Below are positions 1,187 through 57,661 of a stretch of 64,000 nucleotides of DNA, one piece after another (within the stretch, counting starts at the first letter, position 1; each line of letters opens with the position of its first letter). The DNA is from Spirochaetaceae bacterium (GTDB taxonomy: Bacteria; Spirochaetota; Spirochaetia; CADAEX01). Location of the stretch: NCBI GenBank assembly GCA_009780675.1, contig WQZP01000003.1:27427-91426 (forward strand), read 5' to 3'. The notes below the pieces were generated by a model. That model saw nothing but the letters and a program-made list of their open reading frames with translations, was not told where the DNA came from and ran no database searches. Position numbers and translations under genes: made by a program.

Positions 1187-2014
1187 ATGAAACTTTTATT
1201 TTTTATAAGAAATATCAAGATAAATGAGAAAGATAGGACAAATATAACAAAACATTCACACGAATTCCATGAATTATTGTACTGCACTGAAAGTAATTCG
1301 GAAAAAATCAAGGCAGGTGATTTGTTGTTTTATCCAGCCGGGCAAACTCATGCCACAAGCTATGAAATAGGTAAATCCATATTGTTTTATCAAATCTATT
1401 TTTCGGAAAGTCTTTTTTCCACTACTGTAAATATAGAAAAACAGGCTCTTTTTATTCTTGGACAGCTAAAACTCTATGTTAAAAACAGGAATCAGCAGAT
1501 AAATCTTTCCAGGATAGGAACTGAGCGCATAGTTAAGCTTTTTGAAAGTATGCAATGGGAGTTTACAAACCGATATAGGGGATATTCGTGGACAGTAAGG
1601 TTCAAACTTATTGAATTGCTGGTTACGGTTATCAGAGATAGGGAATTTAAGCTTCCAATCAGGGGGGAAATGGGCAAGCCTCTTTCAAACAGCCATATTC
1701 AGGATGTGCTTTTATATCTTGAAACTGATTATATGAGTAATATTACTGTGGATGATATATTGCAGTTTTGCCCATTAAGCAGGAGCCACTTCCATGCCTT
1801 ATTCAAGCAGGAGACAGGAAAAACATTTATTGAATATTTAAATAACTTGCGATGTGAAAAAGCTGCAGAGCTTCTTATTACTACAGATGATACTGTTCTT
1901 GAAATTGCATTTAAGTCTGGGTTTAATAATTTTAGCCACTTTTGCCATACATTTAAACAGCTAAAGGGAATATCACCTAAAAAATATAAGCGAAGCTGTA
2001 TCCCGGAGATTTAA
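1187..2014 (+). CDS. AraC-family transcriptional regulator (cupin-like N-domain + C-terminal HTH_AraC)
   Basis: The C-terminus ...ITVDDILQFCPLSRSHFHALFKQETGKTFIEYLNNLRCEKAAELLITTDDTVLEIAFKSGFNNFSHFCHTFKQ has the typical two-HTH AraC signature. The ATG at 1187 was verified. Confidence 0.8.
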   Translation: MKLLFFIRNIKINEKDRTNITKHSHEFHELLYCTESNSEKIKAGDLLFYPAGQTHATSYEIGKSILFYQIYFSESLFSTTVNIEKQALFILGQLKLYVKNRNQQINLSRIGTERIVKLFESMQWEFTNRYRGYSWTVRFKLIELLVTVIRDREFKLPIRGEMGKPLSNSHIQDVLLYLETDYMSNITVDDILQFCPLSRSHFHALFKQETGKTFIEYLNNLRCEKAAELLITTDDTVLEIAFKSGFNNFSHFCHTFKQLKGISPKKYKRSCIPEI

Positions 2015-2236: not shown

Positions 2237-3373
2237 CTACTGCATGGAAGAAAGTTTAACTGGTTTTGGATTTTCTGTCTCTTCGGAAACCGCAGCAAGT
2301 TCCTCAAGCAGCTTTTTCTGCTTTGAAGAGAGTTTCTCCGGCACAATTACACTTATCTTGACATATAAGTCGCCGCGCCTGTTGGGATTCTGAAGATGCG
2401 GAACCCCCTCTTCCCTCAACCTGAACATTTTGCCATTTTGCGTTCCAGGAGGAATTTTTAGTTTTACTTTTTTATCATCCAGCGTATCTACATAAATATT
2501 TGCACCTAATGTTGCCTGCGTAAATGAAATGGATATCAGACAGTAAATATCTACACCATGCCTTTCAAAATATTCATGCGGCTTTACCTGTATAAGTACA
2601 TATAAATCGCCGGAAGGCCCTCCGTTATTACCAGCATTACCTTGGCCTTGTATGCTTATCCTTTTGCCGGATTCAATGCCCGCAGGTATTGTAACTTTTA
2701 TTTTTTGGGTCCGTTTCTCTACCCCTGTTCCCCTGCATTTTGTACATGGGTTTTCAATAATAAAACCCTCGCCATGACAAGTTGAACACGGAGTTGCTAT
2801 TGAAAAAAATCCAGAACTTCTTCTTACCTGCCCTGTTCCTCCGCAAGTGCTGCACGTCTTTTTTCCAGACCCAGGCTTGCTTCCAGAGCCACTGCACACA
2901 TCACATGCATGGTTTTTATTATATGATATTTCAACTTTGGAGCCAAAAACAGCATCTTTAAAAGAAATAGTAAGATTATATTGCAGATCTGCTCCGCGTG
3001 AAGAATGATCGCCTCTTCTCCCTTTAGAACCGCCTCCGCCAAAAAAAGAATCAAATATGCTTGAAAAGCCGCCGCCGGAAAAGCCACCAAATATATCTTC
3101 AAAGTCCCTGAATACTGATGAATAATCGTGAGCCCCGGCTCCCATTCCTTCAATTCCCGCAAAACCATACTGGTCGTATGTTTGCCTTTTTTTGTCATCA
3201 CTTAAAACTTCATACGCTTCGGTAGCTTCTTTAAACTTACCCTCTGCTTCCTTGTTGCCTGCGGTTTTATCGGGATGGAACTGAATAGCAAGCTTTCTAT
3301 AAGCTTTTTTTATTTCTTCCTTGGTTGCTCCCTTCGAAACACCAAGGACTTCATAATAATCTCTTTTTGCCAA
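2237..3373 (-). CDS. dnaJ: chaperone DnaJ
   Basis: N-terminal J-domain [14 protein letters not shown]...HPDK, a G/F-rich linker, and four CxxCxGxG zinc-finger repeats. It lies downstream of dnaK. Confidence 0.95.
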
Positions 3374-3393
3374 TTTTTGGGTCTCACCTTATA

Positions 3394-5349
3394 TTAGTAT
3401 TCTTTTTTATCTTTATCATCATCTACAACTTCATAGTCAGCATCTTCGATATTATCTCCAGGTTTTTTTTGATCTCCATAATCCTGTTCATTGGAGCTGG
3501 AGTTATTCTGGGAGTTGTCTCCGCCAGCCTGTTGTCCTGCTGTATTTGAAGCATTTTTATACATCTCTTCAGCAAGCTTATAAGAAGCTTGTTTTAGTTC
3601 TTCGGTCTTCTTTTTTATATCTTCAATATCTGTTCCTTCTAAAGCTGTTTTAAGGTTACCCAATGCTGTTTCAACTTTAGTCTTTTCATCGGCAGATATT
3701 TTATCTCCATATTCTTTAAGAGATTTTTCTGTTGCGTAAATAAGAGCATCTGCTTCATTTTTTACTTCTACTTTTTCTTTTTCTTTTTTATCTTCTTCTG
3801 CGTGCGCTGCTGCATCATCAACCATTTTCTTAATTTCTGCTTCGGAAAGTCCGGAAGATGATTCTATCCTTATTTTTTGCTCTTTTCCTGTTGCAATATC
3901 TTTTGCAGATACATGGACTATACCATTGGCATCTATATCAAACGCAACTTCGACTTGCGGAATACCACGTGGCGCCGGAGGTATGCCCACAAGGTCAAAT
4001 TTCCCAAGAGTTCTGTTCTGGGTAGCCATTTCCCGCTCTCCCTGCAGAACATGGATGGAAACTGCTGTCTGGTTATCTGCTGCAGTTGAGAAAACCTGGC
4101 TTTTTCTTGTAGGAATTGTTGTGTTCCTGTCTATAAGTTTTGTGAATACTCCACCGAGAGTTTCTATTCCAAGCGAAAGAGGAGTAACGTCAAGAAGAAG
4201 TACATCTTTAACATCGCCGCCAAGAATACCTCCCTGTATTGCTGCTCCCATAGCCACAACTTCATCGGGGTTTACACTTTTATTTGGTTCTTTTTTAAAT
4301 ATCTCTTTAACAATCGCCTGCACAGCAGGGGTTCTTGTTGCTCCCCCTACAAGAATTACTTCATCAATATCCGAAGGGGAAAGCCCTGCATCACTTAATG
4401 CTTTGAGACATGGTTCTTTTGTCCTTTGAATAAGATTTTCTACCATTTGCTCATATTTCGCTCTTGTAAGATTATATAAAAGATGTTTTGGCCCGCTTGC
4501 ATCTGCAGTTATAAAAGGGAGATTAATATCTGTAGCCTGTGTACTTGAAAGCTCTATCTTTGCTTTTTCAGCTGCTTCTTTAAGCCTTTGCAGCGCCATT
4601 TTATCTTTTGAAAGATCTATTCCAGTATCTTTTTTAAATGTATCTATGAGCCAGATAATTATTGTCTGGTCAAAATTGTCTCCGCTAAGGTGAGTATCGC
4701 CGTTAGTAGACTTTACTTCAAAAACACCGTCGCCAAGCTCAAGTATGGAGATATCAAATGTTCCTCCCCCAAGGTCATACACTGCGATTTTTTCATCTTT
4801 TTTATCTTTTCCAAATCCATAAGCAAGCGCTGCTGCAGTAGGTTCGTTTACAATTCTTTTAACCTCAAGTCCTGCTATCCTTCCCGCATCTTTTGTTGCC
4901 TGTCTTTGTGAATCATTAAAATATGCAGGGACTGTTATTACAGCTTCGGTAATGGTTGTTCCAAGATAATCTTCTGCTGTTTTTTTCATTTTCTGCAATA
5001 CTGCCGCAGATATTTCCGGAGGTGTGTGAGATTTTCCCCTTATATCAATTTTAACATCATGGTTGGGCGTATCTTCAACCTTATAAGGGACAAGCGTAAG
5101 CTCCCTCTGAACTTCTGAAAATTTATTTCCCATAAATCTTTTTATTGAATAAATTGTATTCTCAGGATTAGTAATTATCTGATTTTTTGCAGGCTGACCA
5201 ATGAGTCTTTCGCCCTTATCTGTGAAAGCAACTATAGAAGGAGTTGTTCTTTGTCCTTCTGCATTTGGAATTACTACAGGCTCTCCGCCTTCCATAACAG
5301 CAACACATGAATTAGTTGTTCCAAGATCTATTCCTATAATTTTTCCCAT
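3394..5349 (-). CDS. dnaK: chaperone DnaK (Hsp70)
   Basis: [18 protein letters not shown]..., DLGGGTFD and the other Hsp70 signatures; 651 aa. Confidence 0.97.
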
Positions 5350-5431
5350 ATTAATCTCCTAATTTATCACTTTTTATATTAAACATCCTGGGCTCAGGCT
5401 AATCCCGAAAAAAACCCAGCTAAATTCCATA

Positions 5432-6085
5432 TCAATTTTGGTCTTCTTTTTTCACTTCTGCTTTTGCAGCATGCTCTGCTGTAGCTTCATTTTTTGGCAT
5501 AAAAACTTTTATTTTAGCATGTCTTATGGCCCTATTATTAAGCATATACCCATATTGAAAAACTTCTGCAACAACAGGTTCTGTAATACCCTCTTTTTCT
5601 TCTTTCATAAAAGCTTCATGCTTTTCCGGGTCAAATTTATCGCCTGCTGCAGCAAATTTTACAAGATTCCATTTTTTCTCCAACATTGAAGAAAATTGTT
5701 TTTCTATTAATTCTATCCCTTTGTAAAACTTTTCAAAATCTTTTGAATCAGCAGATGAATTAATAGCTCTCTCAAAATCATCGATTATATTAACCAAATC
5801 CAACAAAAGATTTGTATTTCCATATTTAATAGTTTCTTCTTTCTCTTTGATAACTCTTTTGCGGAAATTATCAAAATCAGCCTGCTTTCTTAATATATTA
5901 TCACGGAGGCCAGCAATTTCTTCTTCTGATTTTTTAAGCTTATCCTTAAGATTTTCAATGACATTATTGTTTTCTTCTGCACCATTACTGCAACTGGATA
6001 TTTCTTCTTCTGTTTTTACTTTTTCTTCATTACAGCTATTTTCAGCACACTCTGCTTTTTTATTTTCTTCGTCTTCTTTATTCAT
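5432..6085 (-). CDS. grpE: nucleotide exchange factor GrpE
   Basis: A 217-aa coiled-coil N-terminal region followed by a GrpE-like C-terminal domain (LLLDLVNIIDDFERA...). It sits immediately upstream of dnaK. Confidence 0.8.
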   Translation of the reverse strand: MNKEDEENKKAECAENSCNEEKVKTEEEISSCSNGAEENNNVIENLKDKLKKSEEEIAGLRDNILRKQADFDNFRKRVIKEKEETIKYGNTNLLLDLVNIIDDFERAINSSADSKDFEKFYKGIELIEKQFSSMLEKKWNLVKFAAAGDKFDPEKHEAFMKEEKEGITEPVVAEVFQYGYMLNNRAIRHAKIKVFMPKNEATAEHAAKAEVKKEDQN

Positions 6086-6179
6086 GGTAGACTACTCCAT
6101 TTCTGATTAATAATATCTTAAAAATAACAATGGAGTTTAAAACCGTCAAGTTTTTCGAGAAATTTATAAAAAAAGAAAG

Positions 6180-9100
6180 CTACTTTTTGGGCATTATCTC
6201 AAGTATAAGCTCAACCTCACCACGGGAAAGACCTGTTGCCTGAGCAATGTTGTCAGATGTCCACCCCTGATGCGCAAGTTTAACAACCATTTCCCGCTTA
6301 TCCAATGAAGGAGCGCCACCTTTTTGAGTTTTCTTGCTCACTTTTGAATCTTTTTCCATAAGAGAACCAAGAAGAGTAACACTATCTTCTGCTTTTTTTA
6401 CAGATTCATTAAGTCTTGTTTCTGTTCTTGCAAGCCATTCTCTGGAATTTTGAACTTTGTCTATACGCTCTTCGATATCACCCATAATCTTGGAGAGAGA
6501 CTCAAGCTTTCCAATTACTTTATCTGCTTCGCTTTTTTCCATACTGATTTTTTTAAATCTGGCTTCAACTTCGTTTAGCCGCACCGGAAACATATCTGCG
6601 ATTTCAGAAAGTTCTGCAAATCCTTTTTCAAGTTTTTGAAGCGTCTGGAAATTTTTATCTACTGCGTCTATTGTTGCTTCCAATATACCTTCTTTCTTTT
6701 CAAGTCTTTGGGATTTTTCGTCTACTTCTTTAAATAAATCGTCAAGCCCTCTAAGTTTTACATCAATCTCCTGGAACCCATCATAGACAGTTGTTACATG
6801 CTCAAGTTTTGTATCAACAGCCTGGGATATATTTAAAAGTTTTTTAAAATCCCCTTCAATTTCATCTATTTTGCGTTTTTCAGAGAGAAGCCTGTTAAGC
6901 TTTGTCGAAACCTCTTCCTCAAGTTTTCTTATGCTGTCAAATTTCTTCTCTGCGACTTTAATATCTTTGCTTTGTGTATCAACTTTTATAATATCCCTTT
7001 TTAGCTCTTCTATTTTTTCATCAAGCGCATTTCTTAGAGTATCGGCACGGTCAAAAATTTTAGTCTGATTGACAAAACTCTTCTGCTTTTTATCAATCTC
7101 ATTAAGAGTTGTATTTAAAGCTTTCATGTTTTCCGATATTTTTATCATTATTTTTTTCTCTGTGTTCTCAATTTTATTTTTCACATCCTGAACAGCTATC
7201 TTAAATTCTTTTATCTTAGTATCTATTTCAAATATAAAATCTCTGTTCTTTTTGGTAAAATCATTCATAAAAAATTCAGCATCAGTTTTTTGTTTTTCAA
7301 TTGCTGCTTCTGATTTTTCTTTGAGATCATCATTAAGTTTGGTAATATTTATGGCAATCTCTTTAAGCAATCGATTAAAAATCTCTCTTGTCTCACTGGA
7401 TTCATGTACAAGGGTATCTTTCTCTTTCGAATATTCAGTCGTTAGCGCATCAATATTTTTTACAATATCTTTTTCATATTGCCTTAGCCTTTCATCAATG
7501 CCTGATTGATACTCTGTAAATTCTTTATTAAAATGGTTGTGACTTGATATTTTAGCATCTTCGGTTTCAGTCTTTAACGAAGCCTCAAACTCTTTTACAC
7601 TTTTTTCAATAAGAATGAGTTTTTCATCAATACCATCTCTAAATATATTTACATTATTTTCATACTTTTGAAATTGGGCATTTGCTTTTACCTGAATTTC
7701 ATTAAGGCGATCTTTCATTGTCTCAATACATTTAGTTTCTATTTCTTCCCTTGTTCCAAGCGTTTCCAGCGTAGCTTTGTCGATTTTTTCGGCTACTTCT
7801 TTTTGCCACAACTCAAGCTTGTTGTTTACTGCATCATTGCGCACTTTTAAATCCTTAAAGAATTCGTCTTCAAAAATCTGTAATTTTTCAGTAACATTTT
7901 CATAAGATTTTTTCTTTAATTCACCTATTCTGTTTTCAAGAGTTTCAAGCACTTCCCGGATCTCTTTAAAATCATTATCCAGTTTTACCTTTTGAGCGCT
8001 CTTTTCCGTATCTATAAATACTTCAAATGAGCGGAAATCATCTTTTATTTTTTCCCCAACTTTGTTCATCATGTTTTTAAGATTTTTTTCCATCTCACTA
8101 ATATCTTTTTCAACTCCTATAATACCTTCTACTTTATAATTTATAGTTTCTTCATATTCTTTGATATTTTCTTCTGCCCTTGAGAGAGATGCAACAACAT
8201 TGGAGTCAACTGTTTCTATCTGCTCTAAAAGTTCTTTTTTTACAAACTCCGCATTTTTCGTTATCTGCTTTCTTAGCTCGTTAAAAAGAACATCCTGATG
8301 CTGATTATTTTCTTCGTTTGCTTTGGCAAATCTTTGATTATATTTTTCTTCGATTTTTTCAATTTTAGCAAGGAATATCTGCTCAAAACTATTTACATCT
8401 GCATCAAGTTTTTTTGAAAAATTCGCTGCCTCCAAATTCTTTCTTTTTTCAAGCCCTTCAACAAAACCCTTGTATGCTTCCAGTCTTTTTTCAAAATCTA
8501 CGGAAACAGCATCAATTTCTTTTTTCATTACTTCAATTTTTCCGGATTCTCCATTTAATGTTTTTTCAAATTCTTTTATATCTGCAAATACATTTTCATA
8601 GTATTGCATTGAGTTCTGTTGAGTATTAACATATTTATCTTCAATATTTTTTTCAAATGTTTTTATTTCTGCGCTTAATTTTTCAAACTGCTCACTTACT
8701 CTCTCTTCAAGGATTTTGAGATTGCCATCCACATCGTTGGTTATTTCAGAAGTTTTATCCTCAATATCTCCTTCAACCTTTTTCATCTCCGCACTTAATT
8801 TTTCATACTGATTTTTTACTCTTGTTTCAAAAGTTTTAAGGTTATCATCAACATCACTGGTTATTTCAGAAGCTTTTTCCTCAATATCTTTTCGCACTGT
8901 CTTGAATACATCTTCGCTAAGAGTAGCCCCTTTTTGCGCTATATCAAGAAGCACTTTTTCAAAACCCTCTTCTGTTTTATATAACTTTGCAGAAAATTGT
9001 TCAGACATCTCTTCAAGTTCCTGGGCTATATCCTTAATTGCTTGTTCTCCAAGCGTATCTCTCCGTTCTTCCAGTTTTACAAGATATTCGCTAAAATTCT

Positions 9101-9683
9101 GAACCTCACTTCTGTTTTCTTCAAGCTGCTCTTTAATAGTATTTGATTTTACTTCTATTTCATTAAAAATTCCAATTTTAAGTAACTCTGCGCTCTCTTC
9201 ATTTTTTTTCGTAAATTCATCTATTATCTGAGGTATTCTATTTTCCAGTTTATCCATTGAAGAAGAAGCTTCTTTTATTTTTTTACTTACATCATCAACA
9301 AAAATAGATTCTTCGTGCAATTTTTTTAGATTCTCATCTACTCTTGATGTCATATCAGATAGTTCTTTTAGGACTGCATCATAGCTATCAATCTTTTTAT
9401 GTATTGCAACAAGTTCCTGTTCTCTGAAAGCAAGATCATTGGCGCTCTGGTCAATTCTGTTATATACTTCTTTAACTGTTTTCTCATGGACCTCAAGCTC
9501 AATTGAAAGGTCTTTAAGCCCCATAGCTTTTTCTTCAACAATTGAATCAAGCTCTTCCTTGATTTTATTAAAATACTTTTTCATTCTTTCGAGGCTTCTG
9601 TTATTAATATCAAGTCTGCGGTATATCATTAATATTGTTATTACAATTGCAATTGTAATGAGATTTCCCAAAGTAAAATCCAT
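6180..9683 (-). CDS. 1167-aa membrane-anchored coiled-coil protein with C-terminal LuxR/GerE- or sigma-70-region-4-like HTH; function unknown
   Basis: One N-terminal TM segment (LGNLITIAIVITILMIYRRL) is followed by about 1050 aa of Glu/Lys-rich heptad-like sequence containing internal ~40-aa tandem repeats. The C-terminus REMVVKLAHQGWTSDNIAQATGLSRGEVELILEIM matches the LuxR/sigma-r4 HTH pattern. The ATG was verified. Confidence 0.6.
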   Translation of the reverse strand: MDFTLGNLITIAIVITILMIYRRLDINNRSLERMKKYFNKIKEELDSIVEEKAMGLKDLSIELEVHEKTVKEVYNRIDQSANDLAFREQELVAIHKKIDSYDAVLKELSDMTSRVDENLKKLHEESIFVDDVSKKIKEASSSMDKLENRIPQIIDEFTKKNEESAELLKIGIFNEIEVKSNTIKEQLEENRSEVQNFSEYLVKLEERRDTLGEQAIKDIAQELEEMSEQFSAKLYKTEEGFEKVLLDIAQKGATLSEDVFKTVRKDIEEKASEITSDVDDNLKTFETRVKNQYEKLSAEMKKVEGDIEDKTSEITNDVDGNLKILEERVSEQFEKLSAEIKTFEKNIEDKYVNTQQNSMQYYENVFADIKEFEKTLNGESGKIEVMKKEIDAVSVDFEKRLEAYKGFVEGLEKRKNLEAANFSKKLDADVNSFEQIFLAKIEKIEEKYNQRFAKANEENNQHQDVLFNELRKQITKNAEFVKKELLEQIETVDSNVVASLSRAEENIKEYEETINYKVEGIIGVEKDISEMEKNLKNMMNKVGEKIKDDFRSFEVFIDTEKSAQKVKLDNDFKEIREVLETLENRIGELKKKSYENVTEKLQIFEDEFFKDLKVRNDAVNNKLELWQKEVAEKIDKATLETLGTREEIETKCIETMKDRLNEIQVKANAQFQKYENNVNIFRDGIDEKLILIEKSVKEFEASLKTETEDAKISSHNHFNKEFTEYQSGIDERLRQYEKDIVKNIDALTTEYSKEKDTLVHESSETREIFNRLLKEIAINITKLNDDLKEKSEAAIEKQKTDAEFFMNDFTKKNRDFIFEIDTKIKEFKIAVQDVKNKIENTEKKIMIKISENMKALNTTLNEIDKKQKSFVNQTKIFDRADTLRNALDEKIEELKRDIIKVDTQSKDIKVAEKKFDSIRKLEEEVSTKLNRLLSEKRKIDEIEGDFKKLLNISQAVDTKLEHVTTVYDGFQEIDVKLRGLDDLFKEVDEKSQRLEKKEGILEATIDAVDKNFQTLQKLEKGFAELSEIADMFPVRLNEVEARFKKISMEKSEADKVIGKLESLSKIMGDIEERIDKVQNSREWLARTETRLNESVKKAEDSVTLLGSLMEKDSKVSKKTQKGGAPSLDKREMVVKLAHQGWTSDNIAQATGLSRGEVELILEIMPKK

Positions 9684-9684
9684 A

Positions 9685-10374
9685 TTACTTCTCCGTTAAA
9701 TGCTTTTTATTCAGGTTAAGCACAAATTCCCAAAATTTTCTGTAGTTATAAAAAGTATAATCTGCCCTGCTGTTTTTCTTCTTAAACAGGCTAAAATATG
9801 CAGAGATCATTCCGGCATTATTTGCCCCTATTATATCATACTGATAATTATTACCAACATAAATTATTTTTTCAGGGGTTATGCCAAGTTTGGAGGCCAC
9901 AAGGTTAAAAGATTCTGGTCTTGGTTTTAATGCCCCAATTTCATCCGCAGAGCAAACAATATCCCAGTAACTGTCAAGCCCAAGATAAGAAAGCTTTCTG
10001 CCTACTGGAAAATCTGAAATTATCCCCACTTTGATATCTTTACTTTTTAGGTCCGCAAGCATTTTTTTTATAATTTTATGGGGTTTTATCCATTTAAACA
10101 TTGAAATAAACTGCCCATAAATATATTTTTCCATAAGCTGCGCTGCTTCCTGTTCTGTTTTTTTGATCTCTTTTGCAAAAAGATTTATCTGAAGCTCTCT
10201 AAGGTTGCCGGAATAATCGATTTTTCTTACTTTACGCCTCATCCTGCCAAATGCAGTGGATAAAACAGGGTGCATGATAAAGAAGAGGATTGAAGTAAGG
10301 CACATTTTATAGTTGGGATAAAGAGTACCATCCACATCAAATATAACTGCCTCTATTTCTTTACAATTAAGCAT
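9685..10374 (-). CDS. HAD-superfamily hydrolase (subfamily IA-like)
   Basis: Motif I IFDVDGTLY is present, with KxxGxxSDFP and a D-rich motif IV-like region further downstream. The ATG was verified. Confidence 0.7.
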   Translation of the reverse strand: MLNCKEIEAVIFDVDGTLYPNYKMCLTSILFFIMHPVLSTAFGRMRRKVRKIDYSGNLRELQINLFAKEIKKTEQEAAQLMEKYIYGQFISMFKWIKPHKIIKKMLADLKSKDIKVGIISDFPVGRKLSYLGLDSYWDIVCSADEIGALKPRPESFNLVASKLGITPEKIIYVGNNYQYDIIGANNAGMISAYFSLFKKKNSRADYTFYNYRKFWEFVLNLNKKHLTEK

Positions 10375-10417: not shown

Positions 10418-11749
10418 CTATTCAGCAAAAGGAGGAATTTCAGAAAGAGTAAAAGCATCATCAACTTTTATACGCACCAGATGAATAAATTCCCGGTTAT
10501 ATCTTCTTATAAACTCATTAATAGGTCTTCTAACATTCCGCTCATAAACAAGAGGATGAAAATTGCCTTCCTCGCATATATACGGGGCAAATACAACAAC
10601 ATGGTAGTGCTGCCTTAACACAGGATTTCTGCCAAAATCTCCATTTACCGACCCAAGGTAGATATATCCTGGATTTGTGACAGTAAGATAGTATAAAATA
10701 GCTTTCAGGTTTGTAACTGAATACCCTATATCTTCCGAGTATCTTTCATAAGGAAAATTCCTTACATCTACATCAGATACCCTTGCCTTTCTTCCAGCAC
10801 TAAGCTCAAAAATAGTCATTGCAATATTTCTTGTCCAATCAAGCCCAAAAAGAGGGTCCCTTTCATCTTCAAAAACAAGACTTAAAGTATCCCTTCTATC
10901 AAAAAGGTGCTTTCTTTTAAGTTCACTTATATCCATAAGCCTGTTTGCTCTTGCAGAAAAAACACCATCTGCCACCCACTTGGCAAAACCCGAGCAATTA
11001 AAACCCATTGCTGGATTTGGGCTCCCAGTTTCTATAAAAACAAAATCTCTATTCCATTCTTGCGCACCATCATCAGAGTCATTAAGCGTGTGCAACTTTG
11101 CATCAATCGCCCGGGCAACATTCATAACAAATCTGTTTTCTGTTTCATTGTAAAATCCGCGAAGTATATCCCAGTTTACTATATAATCAGACAGCCTCAT
11201 AATTGTCTCAAAAGGTTCTGTCATAAGTCTATTAATACTGATGGGCATAAGAACATTTCTGTATATCACAGAGTTGAAGAGGGTAAACTCAAGCATTGTG
11301 CCTTCATTATGTGGATTTATCCTTAGAAATGTATTGGAATCATTGTTTAAAAAAATTTTTATCTGACAGAAAACACCACTCACAGCATCTCTTCTTATTA
11401 TATAAGTGCCAGCAGAAACCATAGGAAATTGATTCCTCTGCGCTAAAGATCTTCTTTCATTTATAAATATGAAATAATAAAAACCTCTTTCAAATACAAT
11501 CTGAAACTGAACTTTTCTGCCTGTCAAAAAACAATCTTTAATAATTGGTCTCTGATTATCTATTTCCCTGCTGGAGGCTGTCATTATATGGGTAACTTCT
11601 CTTCTTATTGCATGCGTCTCCGGGAATGAGTGGCTAAAGCTATTAGCATAAGTTGCAGTTACACCAACAAAAACAAAAATAGCTAAAAAAACCCCTAAAC
11701 CAATTTTTCGTGTCTGGCAAAATTTTAATTTATCTGATTCTCTTTCCAT
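10418..11749 (-). CDS. hypothetical membrane-anchored protein (443 aa); possible NlpC/P60-like Cys motif
   Basis: There is an N-terminal TM segment (IGLGVFLAIFVFVGVTATYA) and no strong family signature. The motif GFNCSGFAKWVADGVF resembles the NlpC/P60 catalytic 'DCSGF' block. Its start overlaps the der stop. Confidence 0.45.
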   Translation of the reverse strand: MERESDKLKFCQTRKIGLGVFLAIFVFVGVTATYANSFSHSFPETHAIRREVTHIMTASSREIDNQRPIIKDCFLTGRKVQFQIVFERGFYYFIFINERRSLAQRNQFPMVSAGTYIIRRDAVSGVFCQIKIFLNNDSNTFLRINPHNEGTMLEFTLFNSVIYRNVLMPISINRLMTEPFETIMRLSDYIVNWDILRGFYNETENRFVMNVARAIDAKLHTLNDSDDGAQEWNRDFVFIETGSPNPAMGFNCSGFAKWVADGVFSARANRLMDISELKRKHLFDRRDTLSLVFEDERDPLFGLDWTRNIAMTIFELSAGRKARVSDVDVRNFPYERYSEDIGYSVTNLKAILYYLTVTNPGYIYLGSVNGDFGRNPVLRQHYHVVVFAPYICEEGNFHPLVYERNVRRPINEFIRRYNREFIHLVRIKVDDAFTLSEIPPFAE

Positions 11750-18971: not shown

Positions 18972-21971
18972 TTACGCTTGGACGTATTTTACTTCTGCAA
19001 TAATAGAACTTAAAGAAAAAGTTGCGATATCTGGAGCAGCCACAAAATAGGCTTGTTTTTCTTTAAATCTTATTGGGGCAAGTAAAAAACTTTTGATTTT
19101 TTTACTATCATTTGAAGAGAATTTATCTTTAAGTTCTTCTATTCTATCAATATCGGTTTTAAGAAATAAAATTTTTCTTTCATTAAGCAATTCTTTGGCA
19201 ATAAGTGAATCATTTTTTATCTTAAGTAATCCAGGATGATCTTTATTAAAAAGACCTACTGATACATCAGGGTAATATCCTTCATCATCTTGTGTCAAAA
19301 TAACAGCAAATCTTGAGTCCATCTTTCTTGTTAATTTAAATAAAAGTTTTACAACTTCAATAGGGTCAGCTTCGTTAATATTATAGGAAATATCGCTATA
19401 AAAGCCATAATCTTCATCAATTTTTATTTTAATATCTTTTTCATCATGACCAGAAACATCTTCTGCGCCTGAAAAAACAGGCAAATCTATTGCATCATCA
19501 AAAAAGAGATCTGAAATAGACGCTTCTTCGTGTTTTTCGGGATCTTCACCTTCTTCCAAATCATCAGCAGTGTTATATAATCCTTCATTAATTTTAAAAA
19601 CCCCATTTTTTTCTATTATAGGAGACTTTTCCTTTTCTTCTGCTTCTTTCAGTTTTGCAATAACTTCTTTTATTGTCCATATTTCCAGAAGACCCTGTTG
19701 TTTTAATACTTCAATATTTTTTGAAAAAGGTGATGATTTACTATTACCAAGATCAGAAGCTGGTATTTCTTCCGCTGAAGTTTCCTGGTCAGAAGTTACT
19801 TCCTTTTTTGCTTTGCCATAAAAGGAATCAGGCATATAGTTCGGTCTATATACACCAACAATATCATTTTTTATATATTCTACAATTTTTACTTTATCAT
19901 CTTTATCTAGGTCTGCTTCTTCAAGAAATTCAAGCTCTTCAAATTCATGATCTATAATGAGTGGTTTAAAATCTTCTATTGTTTCAAGAGTTTCAATTTC
20001 TTGTGGAGGAGGAGTATATTTTTTAGATTTCTTTTCATATGCATCAGCAGCTTTAGCATCTGCCTCATCTTCCAGTTCAGATACTACATCAATATCTTCA
20101 AGATCTACTGCTTCTTCATGGTCTTCTTCCAGTTCCTCGATCAATTCAAAAACATCTGTTTTACTCTCTTCACTTTGAACACCATTTTTTAATTCTTCTT
20201 TAAATGATGAAACTTTTTCAAGGTCTACTTCATCTTCGCCATCACTAACAGGAATAATATTACTTTCAATTTCGGTAATAGCAGTTTGGATTTCATTTTC
20301 GTTTATAATTTCTTCACCATAATCTTTATAAACAGACCCAAGTTCTTCAAATTTTTTATCTTCATCTATAAGCGTTGTTTCTGGCGATTCACTCTCTATT
20401 AATTCATCTATTTCTTCTGGAACTGCTTCCTCTTCCACTTCGTCAAGCGCTTCTACTTCTTCGGGAATTGCTTCAGCTTCAAATTCCTCCACTTCATCAA
20501 GCGCTTCTACTTCGTCAAGTGCTTCTACTTCTTCGGGAACTGCTTCAGCTTCAAGTTCCTCCACTTCATCAAGTTCCTCTACTTCATCAAGTGCTTCCAC
20601 TTCATCGAGGTCTTCAACATCTTCAACCTCAACAGGCTTCATTTTGTTGCTTACAGGCTGAACAACAGGTGCTGATTCCATATTTGGTTTTGAAGTAGCG
20701 CCAGGGAATTTGTTTTTGATAATATCTTCGTTTGCAATAATTTTCCTGATTATTTCTTCAATATTGCTATTTTTATTATCAGCGCCTTTGTCGAGATGCC
20801 CTGCAAGAAGACTTATTATCTCATCCCAGCTTTTATCAATAAGATTATTTACAGTCTCATCTTTTTCGCCTTTTAATCCTGCTATACCTTGCTTAAATTT
20901 TTTACGCACCTCTTCCTTGCGGTTCTCAAGTTCTTTTTTCCATACTCTCCATTCTACTTCACTTTTATTTTCAAGATATTCAATAAGAAAATTTACCTGA
21001 AACCGCTTTACCCTTTCAGCAATAACAACAACCTGATCCTGCTTAATATTCATCAATAAAAAAGAAAATATGAATATAATTGAAAATGCTGAAAAAAGAA
21101 GGATATATCTATAAACAGCGTTTATTCTAATAAGAGAATCAGAAATAACATATCCCAGAAAGCCTTCTCGCCATCTTTGCGTAATAACAGAAAAACTGTT
21201 TCCATCAGCATCAACGTAAAGGGTATAGGGATTTATTATTTGAGTAGTTGTCCAGTAAGCTTTTAGCTCATCAAGAACAGAAGCGCTAGTATCAAATATA
21301 TTAAAGACAATATTACTATGATCCAGGTATTTCATAACCACAGGTCTTTCAATAATATTTCTTTGGACAAGAAAATTTCTTAAGTCATTTGTTGTAAGAT
21401 AGACTAAAATTGCGCCTCTTCTTATTCCTGTAGCGCTGTAAACAGAAGATACAAACAGATTAGAATTTTCTTCTGAATCAAAAAAAATGGTTGGTTCATT
21501 ACCTGCGCGTCTTATAATACTTATAAATTTTTCAATTGCTTGCGCATCCGGTGTTCTATAAGAAACTCTTGTAGGATCCAATGATTGTATATCCGCAGGA
21601 CTGCTGCTGTAATGAACTCTCCCCTCATCATCAATGACTCTAATAAAATAAATATCTATATGCTGTTCAATTAAAGAACTTATTATATTTTCTCTACTAA
21701 GAATATCTTCTCTGCTTTGATTTATAAGAAAACTGTTTCTTATGGCTGGGTCATTTGAAATGGCAGTAAATATTTCAATGCGATTATTTTCATATTCTTC
21801 TATAGCAGTATCAACACTAGCTATTCTGGTTTCTATTTCGGCAACTATTTTCCTGTTATAGAATTTAGACTCTATAAAATGGAAAAGAGTAGAGTAAGAT
21901 ATAATGGTAAAAGCTGTAAACAAGATTAGTGTAATAATCAAGCTTATTGCAGCTTTTTTAATAATTGCCAT
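18972..21971 (-). CDS. 999-aa two-TM protein with extracytoplasmic sensor-like domain and long poly-acidic tandem-repeat cytoplasmic region; function unknown
   Basis: TM1 lies at about residues 10-30, followed by a ~270-aa extracytoplasmic domain, TM2 (YILLFSAFSIIFIFSFLLM), and a D/E-rich region containing (EVEALDEVEELD...) repeats. The DNA shows ~60-nt tandem repeats at 20437-20630. The ATG was verified. Confidence 0.6.
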   Translation of the reverse strand: MAIIKKAAISLIITLILFTAFTIISYSTLFHFIESKFYNRKIVAEIETRIASVDTAIEEYENNRIEIFTAISNDPAIRNSFLINQSREDILSRENIISSLIEQHIDIYFIRVIDDEGRVHYSSSPADIQSLDPTRVSYRTPDAQAIEKFISIIRRAGNEPTIFFDSEENSNLFVSSVYSATGIRRGAILVYLTTNDLRNFLVQRNIIERPVVMKYLDHSNIVFNIFDTSASVLDELKAYWTTTQIINPYTLYVDADGNSFSVITQRWREGFLGYVISDSLIRINAVYRYILLFSAFSIIFIFSFLLMNIKQDQVVVIAERVKRFQVNFLIEYLENKSEVEWRVWKKELENRKEEVRKKFKQGIAGLKGEKDETVNNLIDKSWDEIISLLAGHLDKGADNKNSNIEEIIRKIIANEDIIKNKFPGATSKPNMESAPVVQPVSNKMKPVEVEDVEDLDEVEALDEVEELDEVEELEAEAVPEEVEALDEVEALDEVEEFEAEAIPEEVEALDEVEEEAVPEEIDELIESESPETTLIDEDKKFEELGSVYKDYGEEIINENEIQTAITEIESNIIPVSDGEDEVDLEKVSSFKEELKNGVQSEESKTDVFELIEELEEDHEEAVDLEDIDVVSELEDEADAKAADAYEKKSKKYTPPPQEIETLETIEDFKPLIIDHEFEELEFLEEADLDKDDKVKIVEYIKNDIVGVYRPNYMPDSFYGKAKKEVTSDQETSAEEIPASDLGNSKSSPFSKNIEVLKQQGLLEIWTIKEVIAKLKEAEEKEKSPIIEKNGVFKINEGLYNTADDLEEGEDPEKHEEASISDLFFDDAIDLPVFSGAEDVSGHDEKDIKIKIDEDYGFYSDISYNINEADPIEVVKLLFKLTRKMDSRFAVILTQDDEGYYPDVSVGLFNKDHPGLLKIKNDSLIAKELLNERKILFLKTDIDRIEELKDKFSSNDSKKIKSFLLAPIRFKEKQAYFVAAPDIATFSLSSIIAEVKYVQA

Positions 21972-35590: not shown

Positions 35591-36775
35591 TTATTCTAAA
35601 ACCTCAATTACCTGGCCTGAAGCAACTGTTCTCCCACCTTCCCTGATAGCAAATCTTAATCCTTTTTCCATAGCAATTGGATAGATAAGCTCAACATCAA
35701 GTTCCGTGTTGTCACCTGGCATAACCATCTGCTTATCAGCAGGAAGCGTTACTGAACCTGTAATATCTGTAGTTCTGAAATAGAACTGCGGTCTATATCC
35801 TGTAAAGAATGGATTGTGCCTTCCACCCTCTTCTTTTGTTAAACAATAAATAGTGCCCTTAAATTTCTTATGCGGCTTTATCGAGCCTGGCTTGGCAAGA
35901 ACCTGTCCTCTTTCAACATCATTTTTATCAATACCCCTAAGAAGACCACCGATGTTATCTCCTGCTTCTCCCTGATCAAGTATTTTGTTGAACATCTCAA
36001 CGCCAGTACATGTTGTCTTTTTTGTATCTCTAATACCAACGATTTCAATTTCATCGCCAACTTTTACTATACCTCTTTCGATCCTTCCTGTTACTACAGT
36101 ACCCCTGCCCTGAATAGAGAAAACATCTTCTACTGGCATAAGGAAAGGTTTGTCAACCAATCTTTCCGGAATTGGGAAGTAAGTATCCATTGCATCAAGA
36201 AGGTCCTGAATACATTTAGTAGATTCTGGATCATCAAGATTTGTCATAGCTTTAAAAGCAGATCCTTTAATAATAGGACACTTGGAATCAAAACCATATG
36301 ATTCAAGAAGTTCCTGTACTTCAACTTCTACAAGTTCAACAAGTTCTGGATCCGCAATATCCATTTTGTTCAAAAAAACAATAAGTTTTGGAACTCCTAC
36401 CTGTCTTGCAAGAAGAATATGCTCTCTTGTCTGTGGTTCGGGCCCTGAGTCAGCAGCAACAAGAATTACAGCTCCATCCATCTGAGCAGCACCTGTAATC
36501 ATATTCTTTATATAGTCAGCGTGCCCAGGGCAGTCTACGTGAGCGTAGTGCCTTTTATCTGTCACATATTCAACGTGTCTTGTGTTGATTGTAATACCGC
36601 GCGCTCTTTCTTCCGGAGCATTATCAATATCATCATAACTCATTACTTTTCCACCCTGCTTCTTTGCAGAAAATGCAGTAAGAGCAGCAGTAAGAGTTGT
36701 CTTTCCATGGTCAACATGCCCAATAGTACCAACATTAATATGCGGCTTAGTCCTTTCAAACTTTTCTTTAGCCAT
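35591..36775 (-). CDS. tuf: elongation factor Tu
   Basis: [32 protein letters not shown]...; 394 aa; ATG verified. Confidence 0.97.
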
Positions 36776-55047: not shown

Positions 55048-56121
55048 TCAATTATAGTTGTCCTTCGGAAAATCAGGGGGTTCATCAGGATATTTAAAGG
55101 TTTTTCCCTCGCTATTTTTTAAATAAAAAAAACCATTTTCTCTTTTAATAACAGAATTTCTATCCAGTATAATTTTGCCGCCTGCTTCTGGCAGGTCAAC
55201 AGCAAGGAGCGGAAGAGAAAGAGCAGACATTTCTGTTCTTAGTTTCTCCATAATTTCTATTCCCTGCATAAGATTTGTTCTAAAGTGCGAAGTGCCTGCT
55301 GCAATATCTCCCTGAAAAAGATAGTAAGGTTTCACAGATATTGAAATAAGTTTATAAAAAAGTTCTTTTAGCTGCTTTTCTGAGTTATTTATCCCTTTTA
55401 AGAGAACTGCCTGATTAAAAACAGGAATACCGGATTTGGTTATTAAGTCAACAGCCTTGTTATTGATTTCCGTTATCTCGTCTGAATGATTAAATTGCGT
55501 AAATATATAAAGGGGTCTGTATTTTGATAAAATGCGTACAAGATTTTTGTCAATTCTTGACGGCAAGACAACAGGAACTCTTGTGCATATTCTTATTACA
55601 ATATCTTTTGATACCTCTCTTATTGATTTGCATAGATATTCGATAAAATCATTATCCAGAACAAGTGGGTCGCCTCCGGAGATTAAAACTTCTTTGATGT
55701 ATTTATTGGCTTTTAAATAATCTGTCAGGATTTTCACATCAGCGTTATCTGCATCTTTGATTGCGGCTTTATCAAGATAACGCCTGAAGCAATGTCTGCA
55801 GTAAAGAGCGCAACTGGCAGTAGCAATAAAAAGCACTCTGCCGCGATACCTGTGGATTATTCTGTTTGATTTTGAAAATTCTTTTTCATAAAGAGGGTCT
55901 GCTTTTTCATATTCAAATATTTTAAGCTCTTCTTTAGATGGAACAAATTGTTTTCTTAAATGGCTATTTATATTTTTGCCTGCAAGGTTTAAATAAAAAG
56001 TTGTTGCTCCAATTCTTTTTGTATTAAAATTATCTTCTATTAAAGATATTTCATCTTTGGTAAAAAAAGAGAGTTGTTTGATTTTTTGGTATGTCAAGAT
56101 TTCGTCTTTAAAAAAAGTCAT
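55048..56121 (-). CDS. KamA-family radical SAM protein (lysine 2,3-aminomutase / EpmB-like)
   Basis: CALYCRHCFRR (CxxxCxxC), ISGGDPLVL, PYYLFQGD and GGGK-like motifs. Confidence 0.8.
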   Translation of the reverse strand: MTFFKDEILTYQKIKQLSFFTKDEISLIEDNFNTKRIGATTFYLNLAGKNINSHLRKQFVPSKEELKIFEYEKADPLYEKEFSKSNRIIHRYRGRVLFIATASCALYCRHCFRRYLDKAAIKDADNADVKILTDYLKANKYIKEVLISGGDPLVLDNDFIEYLCKSIREVSKDIVIRICTRVPVVLPSRIDKNLVRILSKYRPLYIFTQFNHSDEITEINNKAVDLITKSGIPVFNQAVLLKGINNSEKQLKELFYKLISISVKPYYLFQGDIAAGTSHFRTNLMQGIEIMEKLRTEMSALSLPLLAVDLPEAGGKIILDRNSVIKRENGFFYLKNSEGKTFKYPDEPPDFPKDNYN

Positions 56122-56241
56122 ACAAAATCCAAATCATTCTTAATTAAAGAGAAAAGAGTATTTTGTGTATTGAATCCTGTTTTATGCAGGACTCAATACA
56201 AATAATTAAATATCTGCTCAACTTTTAAGGTAATTCTGTTC

Positions 56242-56454
56242 TTAAGCAAGAAAAGTAATGTCTTTATGGATTATCATAGTAATAATATCAATGAGCCAGC
56301 CTATCCCAAAGAGTCCGCCTGTAAAGATCCAGATAAGCCCAATAATCACCCTGCCTCGGAGTATGCGGTTGATACCCTGAAAAAGAGGGTCAAAAAAGAA
56401 TGTAAAAATAAATTTAATCAACCAGTCAAGTTGATCAATTGCAGTTCTAGCCAT
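56242..56454 (-). CDS. TM2-domain small membrane protein (70 aa)
   Basis: ...RVIIGLIWIFTGGLFGIGWLIDII... fits the TM2 pattern of two helices with a D-containing second helix. Confidence 0.55.
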   Translation of the reverse strand: MARTAIDQLDWLIKFIFTFFFDPLFQGINRILRGRVIIGLIWIFTGGLFGIGWLIDIITMIIHKDITFLA

Positions 56455-56770
56455 AAGAAACTCCTATTTATAAATGATAATATATTATAGTTCCAATAAA
56501 GCAGAACTGCCAGCGAAAAATGCAAAATAACTTCTATATACTCATTTGTTTTTGATACAGAAAAATAATAGAATCTGCCACAACCTACCCAAAAAAGAGA
56601 GTAACCTACCCAATTTCACGCGTACCTATAAAGTTTTTTCTATTACCATAGACAGAAATTACAAATATTAAAAACACTTCAATATTTTGTTAAAAAAATT
56701 GAAGCAATTCATACGTTTGATGAGTTTTAGAATTTTTAAATCAACAACCTCGCCATAAAGGGTATAAAAC

Positions 56771-57661
56771 ATGGAAAGTAAAAGTTTAAATACAATGCTT
56801 ATTTCTTACAAAAATAATATTATGCCAAAGAAAAAAATTATAGAGGCCATCAGTCTATTTGTTTATAAATTTCCCCTTAAAAAATATAGGTGGTTGGAAG
56901 ATGATTGCAGTGAATTTTTCAGTTATTTTTTTCCAAAAATAGGTAAAATCATAGATTCATTTATAATAACAGATGTCCCTTTTGAGGCGTACCTTATAAA
57001 AACTCTTAAACTTCAAATAAAAACTTTTGCGCTAAAAAAAATTGCTGATAACATTAACAGAAAAATATTAGAACATAAAGAGTTCTGGTCATTCAATAAT
57101 CGCGAAGCTTACTGCGCTGAATCCAATATAGATTTCAATAAACAAGATTTTCAGCCATCATATTTTTTTATTAAAAAATTATTTTTGGATAATAAAACAA
57201 GACATGGGTGTAGCAATAAAACTCTTAAAAAAAGAATTTTGCTTCTTTTATTAAAAAATATGAATAATATATCAGAGACAGAAATTCCTGCTATTGCAGA
57301 AATTCTGAATTGTGATAAGGAATGGTTCCATGAAGCTTTTTCTAAAATCAATCAAAAAATTGAAAAGAAAATTAAAAGAAAAAAACTTCTTGAGGAAAGA
57401 AGAAACAGACACTTCTGCAGGCTTTATCACCTGCATGAGCTTTCATCCAACTGCAATATAATAGAAGAAAAGAACAAATATTTGTTGGCAATTATTAAAA
57501 CCAAATCATACATAAACAAGATAACAGAAAAAATTAATACGTTCTCTGTAGGAGCTGCTCACAAAGATATTGCGGAAGTTATGAATATTCCAAAAGGGTC
57601 TGTAGATTCTGGACTTTTTTATTTTAAGTTATATGTAGAAGATATACTAGAAAATAAGTAG
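56771..57661 (+). CDS. hypothetical Lys-rich 296-aa protein with C-terminal sigma-70 region-4-like HTH
   Basis: The C-terminus ...SVGAAHKDIAEVMNIPKGSVDSGLFYFKLYVE resembles a sigma-r4/HTH. No other recognisable family block. Confidence 0.45.
   Translation: MESKSLNTMLISYKNNIMPKKKIIEAISLFVYKFPLKKYRWLEDDCSEFFSYFFPKIGKIIDSFIITDVPFEAYLIKTLKLQIKTFALKKIADNINRKILEHKEFWSFNNREAYCAESNIDFNKQDFQPSYFFIKKLFLDNKTRHGCSNKTLKKRILLLLLKNMNNISETEIPAIAEILNCDKEWFHEAFSKINQKIEKKIKRKKLLEERRNRHFCRLYHLHELSSNCNIIEEKNKYLLAIIKTKSYINKITEKINTFSVGAAHKDIAEVMNIPKGSVDSGLFYFKLYVEDILENK

Follow-up and report, generated by a model that had tools for sequence, protein, structure and literature searches.

A predicted membrane-anchored SpiroCoCo protein encoded beside grpE in a Spirochaetaceae bacterium appears to end in a helix-turn-helix-fold module related to the DUF2802 domain of FipA

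In the 64-kb stretch of Spirochaetaceae bacterium DNA analyzed here (from contig WQZP01000003.1; hereafter, the window), an open reading frame (ORF) on the minus strand at positions 6180..9683, together with its matches to NCBIfam models, defines a gene for a coiled-coil protein of the SpiroCoCo family of 1167 amino acids (aa). This ORF is real and its start is secure, because the homologues open with the same M-x-F-x-L-G-N-L sequence as the one that begins at this ATG and because a GGAG is located 7 nt upstream of it. The gene lies directly upstream of grpE-dnaK-dnaJ in the same orientation, as noted in an initial annotation that had been made from the sequence alone. Also in agreement with that annotation, the ORF encodes one N-terminal transmembrane helix. 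Indeed, residues 3-22 (9618..9677, minus strand) form the only hydrophobic segment, being the sole place in the whole 1167 aa where the Kyte-Doolittle hydropathy of a 19-residue span exceeds 1.6. The helix is followed by YRRLDINNR, which places two arginines directly on the predicted cytoplasmic side. An N-out/C-in topology is therefore predicted, with about 2 residues outside and the remainder of the protein in the cytoplasm.

Most of the protein, about 1100 aa, is a Glu/Lys-rich helical stretch (E, 14.6%, and K, 13.5%, of the 1167 residues, with four prolines in all). The initial annotation had described it as a heptad-like rod with internal tandem repeats of about 40 aa. The Glu/Lys-rich helical character was confirmed, but the hydrophobic periodicity of the rod had its maximum at 3.64 residues (40/11; power 6.6, compared to a maximum of 2.0 after shuffling) instead of the 3.5 residues of a heptad. 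Similarly, self-comparison recovered a single tandem duplication in the variable part of the rod, formed by residues 266-305 and 306-345 (8649..8888, minus strand). It scored 119 compared to a shuffle maximum of 63, with 24 of 35 residues identical, and no other internal repeat rose above chance. The duplicated unit measures exactly 40 aa, which corresponds to 11 turns. The 3.64-residue periodicity, this 40-aa unit, and sub-threshold Pfam Apolipoprotein matches in the rod (residues 30-1120) point to a hendecad-like or amphipathic-helix packing rather than to a canonical heptad coiled coil. When the N-terminal and mid-rod segments alone were compared with Pfam, nothing was found beyond sub-threshold coiled-coil noise.

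Both ends of the protein matched curated NCBIfam models. SpiroCoCo_C (NF047515) scored 309.9 bits (cut-off, 125), and residues 848-1161 (6201..7142, minus strand) covered profile positions 1-313 of 313. SpiroCoCo_N (NF047514), with which the LA_3659 family (NF047516) is associated, scored 181.1 bits (cut-off, 75) over residues 8-235 (8979..9662, minus strand). The family also shares the conserved motif YRxLDxNNRSLEKxKxY immediately after the transmembrane helix. Judged by these profiles, the 1167-aa protein is a full-length, typical member of the SpiroCoCo family. The initial annotation had held this to be an undescribed architecture, a view that fails because both hidden Markov models exceed their cut-offs.

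A 100% identical protein is present in NCBI (FWD87_01380, from a Spirochaetaceae bacterium metagenome-assembled genome). When the C-terminal 320 aa served as the query of an exhaustive HMMER search, at least 500 representative clusters were returned, including 270 at an E-value of 1e-30 or lower. In 150/150 of the representatives listed, whose lengths span 306 to 2718 aa (the shortest being apparent fragments), the conserved domain formed the extreme C terminus. Family lengths run from about 830 to 2718 aa, the ends being conserved and the middle variable, and the longest named member belongs to Hollandina sp. SP2. The protein studied here (1167 aa; family median, about 1137 aa) has the same transmembrane helix, variable rod and conserved C-terminal tail as its relatives. 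The N-terminal transmembrane helix was found in 138 of 169 family sequences, and the remainder look like fragments. In a genome scan, at least 552 species-level genomes proved to carry a relative, and the best 80 all belonged to the Spirochaetota. Against plasmids, tblastn with the tail yielded nothing beyond noise (E-values of 6 or higher). Our literature search found no paper on SpiroCoCo or LA_3659 and no function assigned to the family. SpiroCoCo is a family already catalogued and named but functionally blank, of which this protein is a further member.

We modeled the C-terminal tail with AlphaFold2, using alignments of 86-100 sequences. The modeled region comprises a long terminal helix, residues 1049-1119 (6327..6539, minus strand), with a predicted local distance difference test score (pLDDT) of 88-98 over most of its length and an invariant REWLARTETRL motif (invariant columns, W/E/T/R). 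This helix is followed by a flexible Lys/Gly-rich linker, residues 1120-1126 (6306..6326, minus strand), which was predicted without secondary structure (pLDDT of about 50), has a family mean charge of +1.5, and carries a conserved GAP motif at its end. The last part is a three-helix module, residues 1127-1163 (6195..6305, minus strand), whose helices at 1127-1138, 1143-1150 and 1154-1163 reached a pLDDT of 92-96. The module holds the residues G1140, L1152, E1156 and L1159.

The top Foldseek matches in the PDB were all helix-turn-helix (HTH) domains, namely those of paired domains, the Tc3 and IstA transposases, the gamma-delta and Tn3 resolvases, a small terminase, NarL/DosR/RhlR and SigL region 4. 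Gamma-delta resolvase was the top match of the 120-aa tail model, and GerE was also among the matches. Superposition on the HTHs of paired domains, Tc3, the small terminase, SigL region 4 and NarL gave root mean square deviations (rmsd) of 0.9-2.3 Å over 35-43 residues. The template-modeling scores against HTH domains were 0.6-0.8 when normalized to the query, and because the domain is so small, every Foldseek E-value was 0.06 or higher. According to these models, the tail adopts a tri-helical HTH fold. A sequence search of the PDB with the tail profile gave nothing significant (best E-value, 0.023, with a designed repeat protein).

We scanned 32 diverse SpiroCoCo tails singly against Pfam. 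DUF6115 and DUF2802 each matched 32/32 tails, with best E-values of 7.2e-9 and 3.9e-8, respectively. HTH_23 matched 24/32 (best E-value, 2e-4), HTH_7 16/32 (1e-3) and Sigma70_r4_2 7/32 (7.3e-3), and a weak PAX match was also seen among the family tails. DUF6115 and DUF2802 E-values were 1e3 to 1e4 times better than those of any DNA-binding HTH family. For the query itself, DUF6115 (PF19610) scored 30.1 bits with the isolated 120 aa and 23.3 bits with the full-length protein (gathering threshold, 27), residues 1059-1162 matching profile positions 35-132 of 134. DUF2802 (PF10975) scored 27.4 bits with the isolated tail (E-value, 3.8e-6) and 20.2 bits with the full protein (gathering threshold, 33.5). 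The same two families, PF10975/PF19610, are the precomputed Pfam labels on C-terminal fragments of SpiroCoCo proteins. GerE, Sigma70_r4 and Sigma70_r4_2 matched neither the full query at E-values up to 1 nor its tail at E-values up to 0.1. The sequence relatives of the tail are, on this evidence, DUF6115 and DUF2802 and not LuxR/GerE or sigma region 4. The initial annotation had proposed the latter two; its HTH fold is borne out by the AlphaFold2 and Foldseek results, but its choice of family is not. The SpiroCoCo tail has the tri-helical HTH in common with LuxR/GerE and sigma-70 region 4 (best rmsd, 1.2-2.3 Å) but differs from them by its acidic third helix and by the lack of a LuxR-type fourth helix.

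DUF6115, the best-scoring Pfam family for the tail, groups uncharacterized small bacterial proteins, for which our literature search found no function or paper. Its profile has 134 positions, and the part matched here is the last tenth of a giant protein. We considered SwrB of Bacillus subtilis as a possible DUF6115 member and set it aside; the literature describes poor conservation of its cytoplasmic domain.

DUF2802, for its part, is the domain that defines FipA, a protein with which FlhF interacts in polar flagellates (PMC11620751). FipA has about 160 aa: 5 periplasmic residues at the N terminus are followed by one transmembrane helix, then by a coiled region in the cytoplasm and, at the C terminus, by the DUF2802 domain. 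It binds the signal recognition particle-type GTPase FlhF at the membrane (PMC11620751). The substitutions G110A and L129A abolish FlhF binding, E126 is invariant yet dispensable, and L122 of VpFipA corresponds to the mutated L116 of P. putida (PMC11620751). We rebuilt residues 103-137 of VpFipA from the mutagenic primers of that study and confirmed them with Vibrio DUF2802 proteins from the database. The Vibrio FipA segment KMVQLGADINELIEECELPKAEAELMLSLQKK and the SpiroCoCo segment KLAHQGWTSDNIAQATGLSRGEVELILEIMPK could be aligned without gaps over 32 residues. This alignment pairs G110 with G1140, L122 with L1152, E126 with E1156 and L129 with L1159, with a shared G-x15-E-x2-L spacing. The motif is complete in 153 of 169 family sequences, the exceptions being mostly at the glycine.

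The predicted plan of the SpiroCoCo protein is also that of FipA, i.e., an N-out segment, a single transmembrane helix, a cytoplasmic coil and a C-terminal domain, except that it is about 1000 residues longer (1167 aa compared to about 160 aa; the rod measures about 1100 aa and the FipA coil about 30 aa). Unlike FipA, which has a C-terminal extension past the domain, the SpiroCoCo protein ends 4 residues after helix 3.

In the canonical 20-residue HTH numbering, the core hydrophobic positions are 4, 5, 10, 15 and 18, and the DNA-contacting positions of the recognition helix are usually occupied by Ser, Lys, Arg or Gln. In the SpiroCoCo tail, the core positions are filled by I1146, A1147, L1152, V1157 and I1160, and the positions that usually face the major groove hold S1153, R1154, G1155, E1158, L1159 and E1162. 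Of these, E1158, L1159 and E1162 are invariant on the face that a DNA-binding HTH turns to DNA. Moreover, helix 3 (RGEVELILEI) has a net charge of -2 to -3 in 153/153 members scored, the mean charge of the module being -0.3. Because helix 3 is acidic and L1159 corresponds to the FipA leucine that is needed for FlhF binding, we somewhat favor a tip that docks a protein over one that binds DNA.

Taken together, the reading best supported by these data, to which we give a probability of about 0.5, is that of a membrane-anchored scaffold or spacer with a protein-docking HTH-fold tip at its distal end. The SpiroCoCo protein would be bitopic in the inner membrane, with one transmembrane helix and, apart from the few outer residues, everything else in the cytoplasm. 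Its very long and length-variable amphipathic helical rod would act as the scaffold or spacer, and the far end of the rod would carry the 40-residue HTH-fold module on the flexible Lys-rich linker. This module would be an evolutionary relative of the DUF6115/DUF2802 domain, which in FipA is a docking site for FlhF and not a DNA binder. Finally, the tip would dock a protein partner, with FlhF as the leading candidate, via the face that carries E1158, L1159 and E1162. The initial annotation had offered either a regulator or a cytoskeletal protein with an HTH, and the second option, recast as a scaffold with an HTH-shaped appendage, comes closer to the evidence.

An N-terminal membrane anchor and a long helical rod are also found in EzrA, and the rod is common to the SpiroCoCo protein and to EzrA, SMC and Rad50. 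However, the SMC and Rad50 models reached only 24-38 bits in our protein, compared to cut-offs of 567-1087, and they did so in coiled-coil segments only. We found neither an SMC-type ATPase head or hinge nor an EzrA Pfam match.

FlhF was chosen as the leading candidate because the tail is related to the FipA domain and also because, in spirochetes, FlhF is found at the poles and at midcell, where it places the periplasmic flagella (bioRxiv 10.64898/2026.04.08.717139). No FlhF membrane anchor was found described for spirochetes in the literature, and neither a landmark nor a coiled-coil anchor is mentioned in this preprint (bioRxiv 10.64898/2026.04.08.717139). By analogy with FipA, FlhF as the partner of the tip is a tentative proposal. 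Equally tentative is the wider one that SpiroCoCo may be the spirochete counterpart of FipA, its tip capturing FlhF and helping to set the site and number of periplasmic flagella. In that case, the length-variable rod (830-2718 aa) might serve as a spacer or ruler.

Several observations weigh against docking at the tip and against the link to FipA. The DUF2802 score of the query lies under the Pfam gathering threshold (27.4 compared to 33.5 bits), and the region shared with FipA is short, at about 32 residues, and has a fold that is very common. In about 8 of 169 sequences, N, S, A or Q stands in place of the motif glycine. A comparison with hhalign gave the same register but was weak (P = 0.017; probability, 2.7%, with a shallow, Vibrio-only FipA profile). 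The gene context differs as well: fipA ends a flhA-flhF-flhG-fliA-che operon, whereas the SpiroCoCo gene lies between a gene for a HAD-family hydrolase and grpE, and no flagellar gene adjoins it in the window or in any of 84 loci. In addition, the authors of the FipA study report spirochetes to be without FipA homologues (PMC11620751). Lastly, the combination of a Lys-rich linker and an HTH fold leaves room for non-specific DNA binding.

The interest of these data is that the giant membrane-anchored proteins of a spirochete-wide, functionally blank family carry at their end a relative of the domain with which FipA docks FlhF, a relationship that we found unreported in the literature. FlhF, located at the poles and midcell, controls the number and placement of the periplasmic flagella in Borrelia. 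If the link to FlhF is real, SpiroCoCo would be a testable candidate for an FlhF anchor in bacteria whose cell shape, motility and infectivity depend on where the flagella are placed, and the HTH fold would have been reused as a protein-docking module at the tip of a long spacer. More broadly, the relationship to FipA makes the family a testable candidate for a part in flagellar or polar organization in spirochetes.

The alternative that survives best gives the tip the opposite role. The tip and the Lys-rich linker would bind DNA, non-specifically or at dispersed sites, so that the rod would link the chromosome to the inner membrane, with a function in nucleoid organization or segregation in a long thin cell. 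This would be in line with the superposition of the module on genuine DNA-binding HTHs and with the weak Pfam matches to HTH_23 (24/32), HTH_7 (16/32) and PAX. The linker is basic (mean, +1.5), the succession of long helix, linker and HTH recalls gamma-delta resolvase, and a rod that extends over about 1000 aa in the cytoplasm might be long enough to reach the nucleoid. However, helix 3 is acidic in every member scored and the module is about neutral, invariant Glu and Leu occupy positions that are usual for DNA-contacting residues, and the best sequence relatives, DUF6115/DUF2802, are not DNA-binding families. We hence regard such a tether to the nucleoid as unlikely.

The remaining alternatives concern the position of the gene. 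The grpE-dnaK-dnaJ operon downstream (2237..6085, minus strand; identified with Pfam GrpE, translations and tblastn) consists of grpE (5432-6085), dnaK (3394-5349) and dnaJ (2237-3373), all on the same strand as the SpiroCoCo gene. An AraC-family regulator gene (1187-2014, plus strand) adjoins dnaJ in convergent orientation, the 3' ends facing each other. On the other side, a gene for a HAD-family hydrolase (Pfam Hydrolase/HAD_2; 9685..10374, minus strand) lies directly upstream of the SpiroCoCo gene. Its stop codon is located 1 nt before the SpiroCoCo ATG, which suggests that the two genes are probably translationally coupled.

We surveyed 80 related genome loci, of which 71 had enough flank for the grpE count and 62 served for the HAD count. 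grpE was located downstream on the same strand within 10 kb in 58/71 loci (82%) and was directly adjacent in 42/71; in 13/71 this neighborhood was missing. The most constant neighbor was the HAD gene, immediately upstream in 55/62 loci, and the HAD-SpiroCoCo pair was kept in five Treponematales loci in which adjacency to grpE is lost. In one Spirochaetales lineage without adjacent grpE (four loci), clpB lies 0.1-3.5 kb downstream in convergent orientation. The four loci, whose ClpB proteins are 72-84% identical, represent one lineage, and the finding may be a coincidence. Across many loci, the genes form a syntenic block, PtsI-Der-hypothetical (443 aa)-HAD-SpiroCoCo. The hypothetical 443-aa protein (10418-11749, minus strand) matched no Pfam or NCBIfam family.

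A consensus scan of the region between the SpiroCoCo ORF and grpE identified a putative sigma-70-type promoter of grpE-dnaK-dnaJ, TTGACG-17-TATTTT with a TG before the -10 element (6121..6149, minus strand). The pattern CTTGACG-N17/18-TAT(T/C)TT was present in 39 of 41 homologous SpiroCoCo-grpE intergenic regions from Spirochaetia and was often extended to TTAGTATTTTA. To judge from this conservation, grpE-dnaK-dnaJ is clearly equipped as a transcription unit of its own. In the window, the stretch from the ORF to grpE showed no terminator-like site, and some read-through into grpE is possible for this reason. The homologous intergenic regions contained no conserved operator-like repeat or palindrome. 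We considered an inverted repeat around the grpE -10 element and Shine-Dalgarno sequence, ACTCCATT-N27-AATGGAGT, as an operator or RNA thermometer but rejected it as chance, because its first arm, being located upstream of the -10 element, would not be transcribed and because the repeat is absent from the nearest relative. Rfam gave no RNA family near the locus.

As stated in the initial annotation, no CIRCE element (controlling inverted repeat of chaperone expression) lies upstream of grpE; we found none at up to 3 mismatches in the whole window. Likewise, no HrcA was found among the HrcA-like-sized ORFs scanned in the window (RpoA, a radical-SAM protein and DnaJ), a scan that left aside a 394-aa ORF at 35591-36775 that from its position is presumably EF-Tu. 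The absence of hrcA applies to these 64 kb only.

In T. denticola, TDE0626 was found by reverse transcription-PCR not to be cotranscribed with grpE (PMC2965109). We considered these data as evidence on SpiroCoCo, as the primer reads K-T-V-K-G-E-V, and rejected them: TDE0626 encodes a protein of 504 aa that is not related to SpiroCoCo (...FSKTVKGEVIVSD...). The same gene lies upstream of grpE in a T. denticola-like metagenome contig (L086, 8180-9694, minus strand), and since this gene is unrelated to SpiroCoCo, the SpiroCoCo-grpE synteny is absent in T. denticola.

A chaperone-linked membrane scaffold, in which the protein would recruit or organize the DnaK system at the inner membrane or be a major client of it, would account for the long-conserved neighborhood of chaperone genes. 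Besides the 82% of loci with grpE-dnaK-dnaJ downstream, the nearby clpB in a lineage without grpE adjacency and the possible read-through into grpE would fit this idea. However, the clpB case is that of one lineage, grpE has its own promoter, the adjacency is absent in Treponematales, and Pfam scans found no J-domain, nucleotide exchange factor or known DnaK-binding motif in the protein. Conserved gene order alone, moreover, says little in spirochetes, in which large syntenic blocks such as the one described above persist. We consider this scaffold improbable, slightly more so than the tether to the nucleoid.

Least plausible is a membrane-tethered transcription factor that would replace HrcA and regulate grpE-dnaK-dnaJ under membrane or envelope stress: the co-oriented position directly upstream of grpE, the HTH fold of the tail and the lack of CIRCE and hrcA would suit it, but the protein has nothing but this position in common with the HrcA/CIRCE system and no similarity to HrcA in Pfam or NCBIfam, its acidic recognition helix speaks against specific DNA binding, the intergenic regions conserve -35 and -10 elements but no inverted-repeat operator, hrcA was sought in one window only, and adjacency to grpE is lost in Treponematales (in T. 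denticola to an unrelated gene) and other lineages that keep the HAD-SpiroCoCo pair. The heat-shock regulator role, and with it the picture of a gene embedded in a heat-shock operon that the initial annotation had drawn, is unsupported given the grpE promoter conserved in 39/41 regions, the 13/71 loci without grpE nearby and the acidic helix 3 in 153/153 members. The position beside grpE is conserved gene order and not a regulatory link.

Elsewhere in the window, a 999-aa ORF (18972-21971, minus strand) between the RNase Y gene and the rpoA/ribosomal-protein cluster had no Pfam or NCBIfam match. A region at about 56100-56800 has an origin-like character but shows no enrichment of DnaA boxes and has no dnaA gene in its vicinity; GC skew and gene orientation switch here, from negative skew with minus-strand genes on the left to positive skew with plus-strand genes on the right, and the region is AT-rich (GC content, 0.26-0.29).

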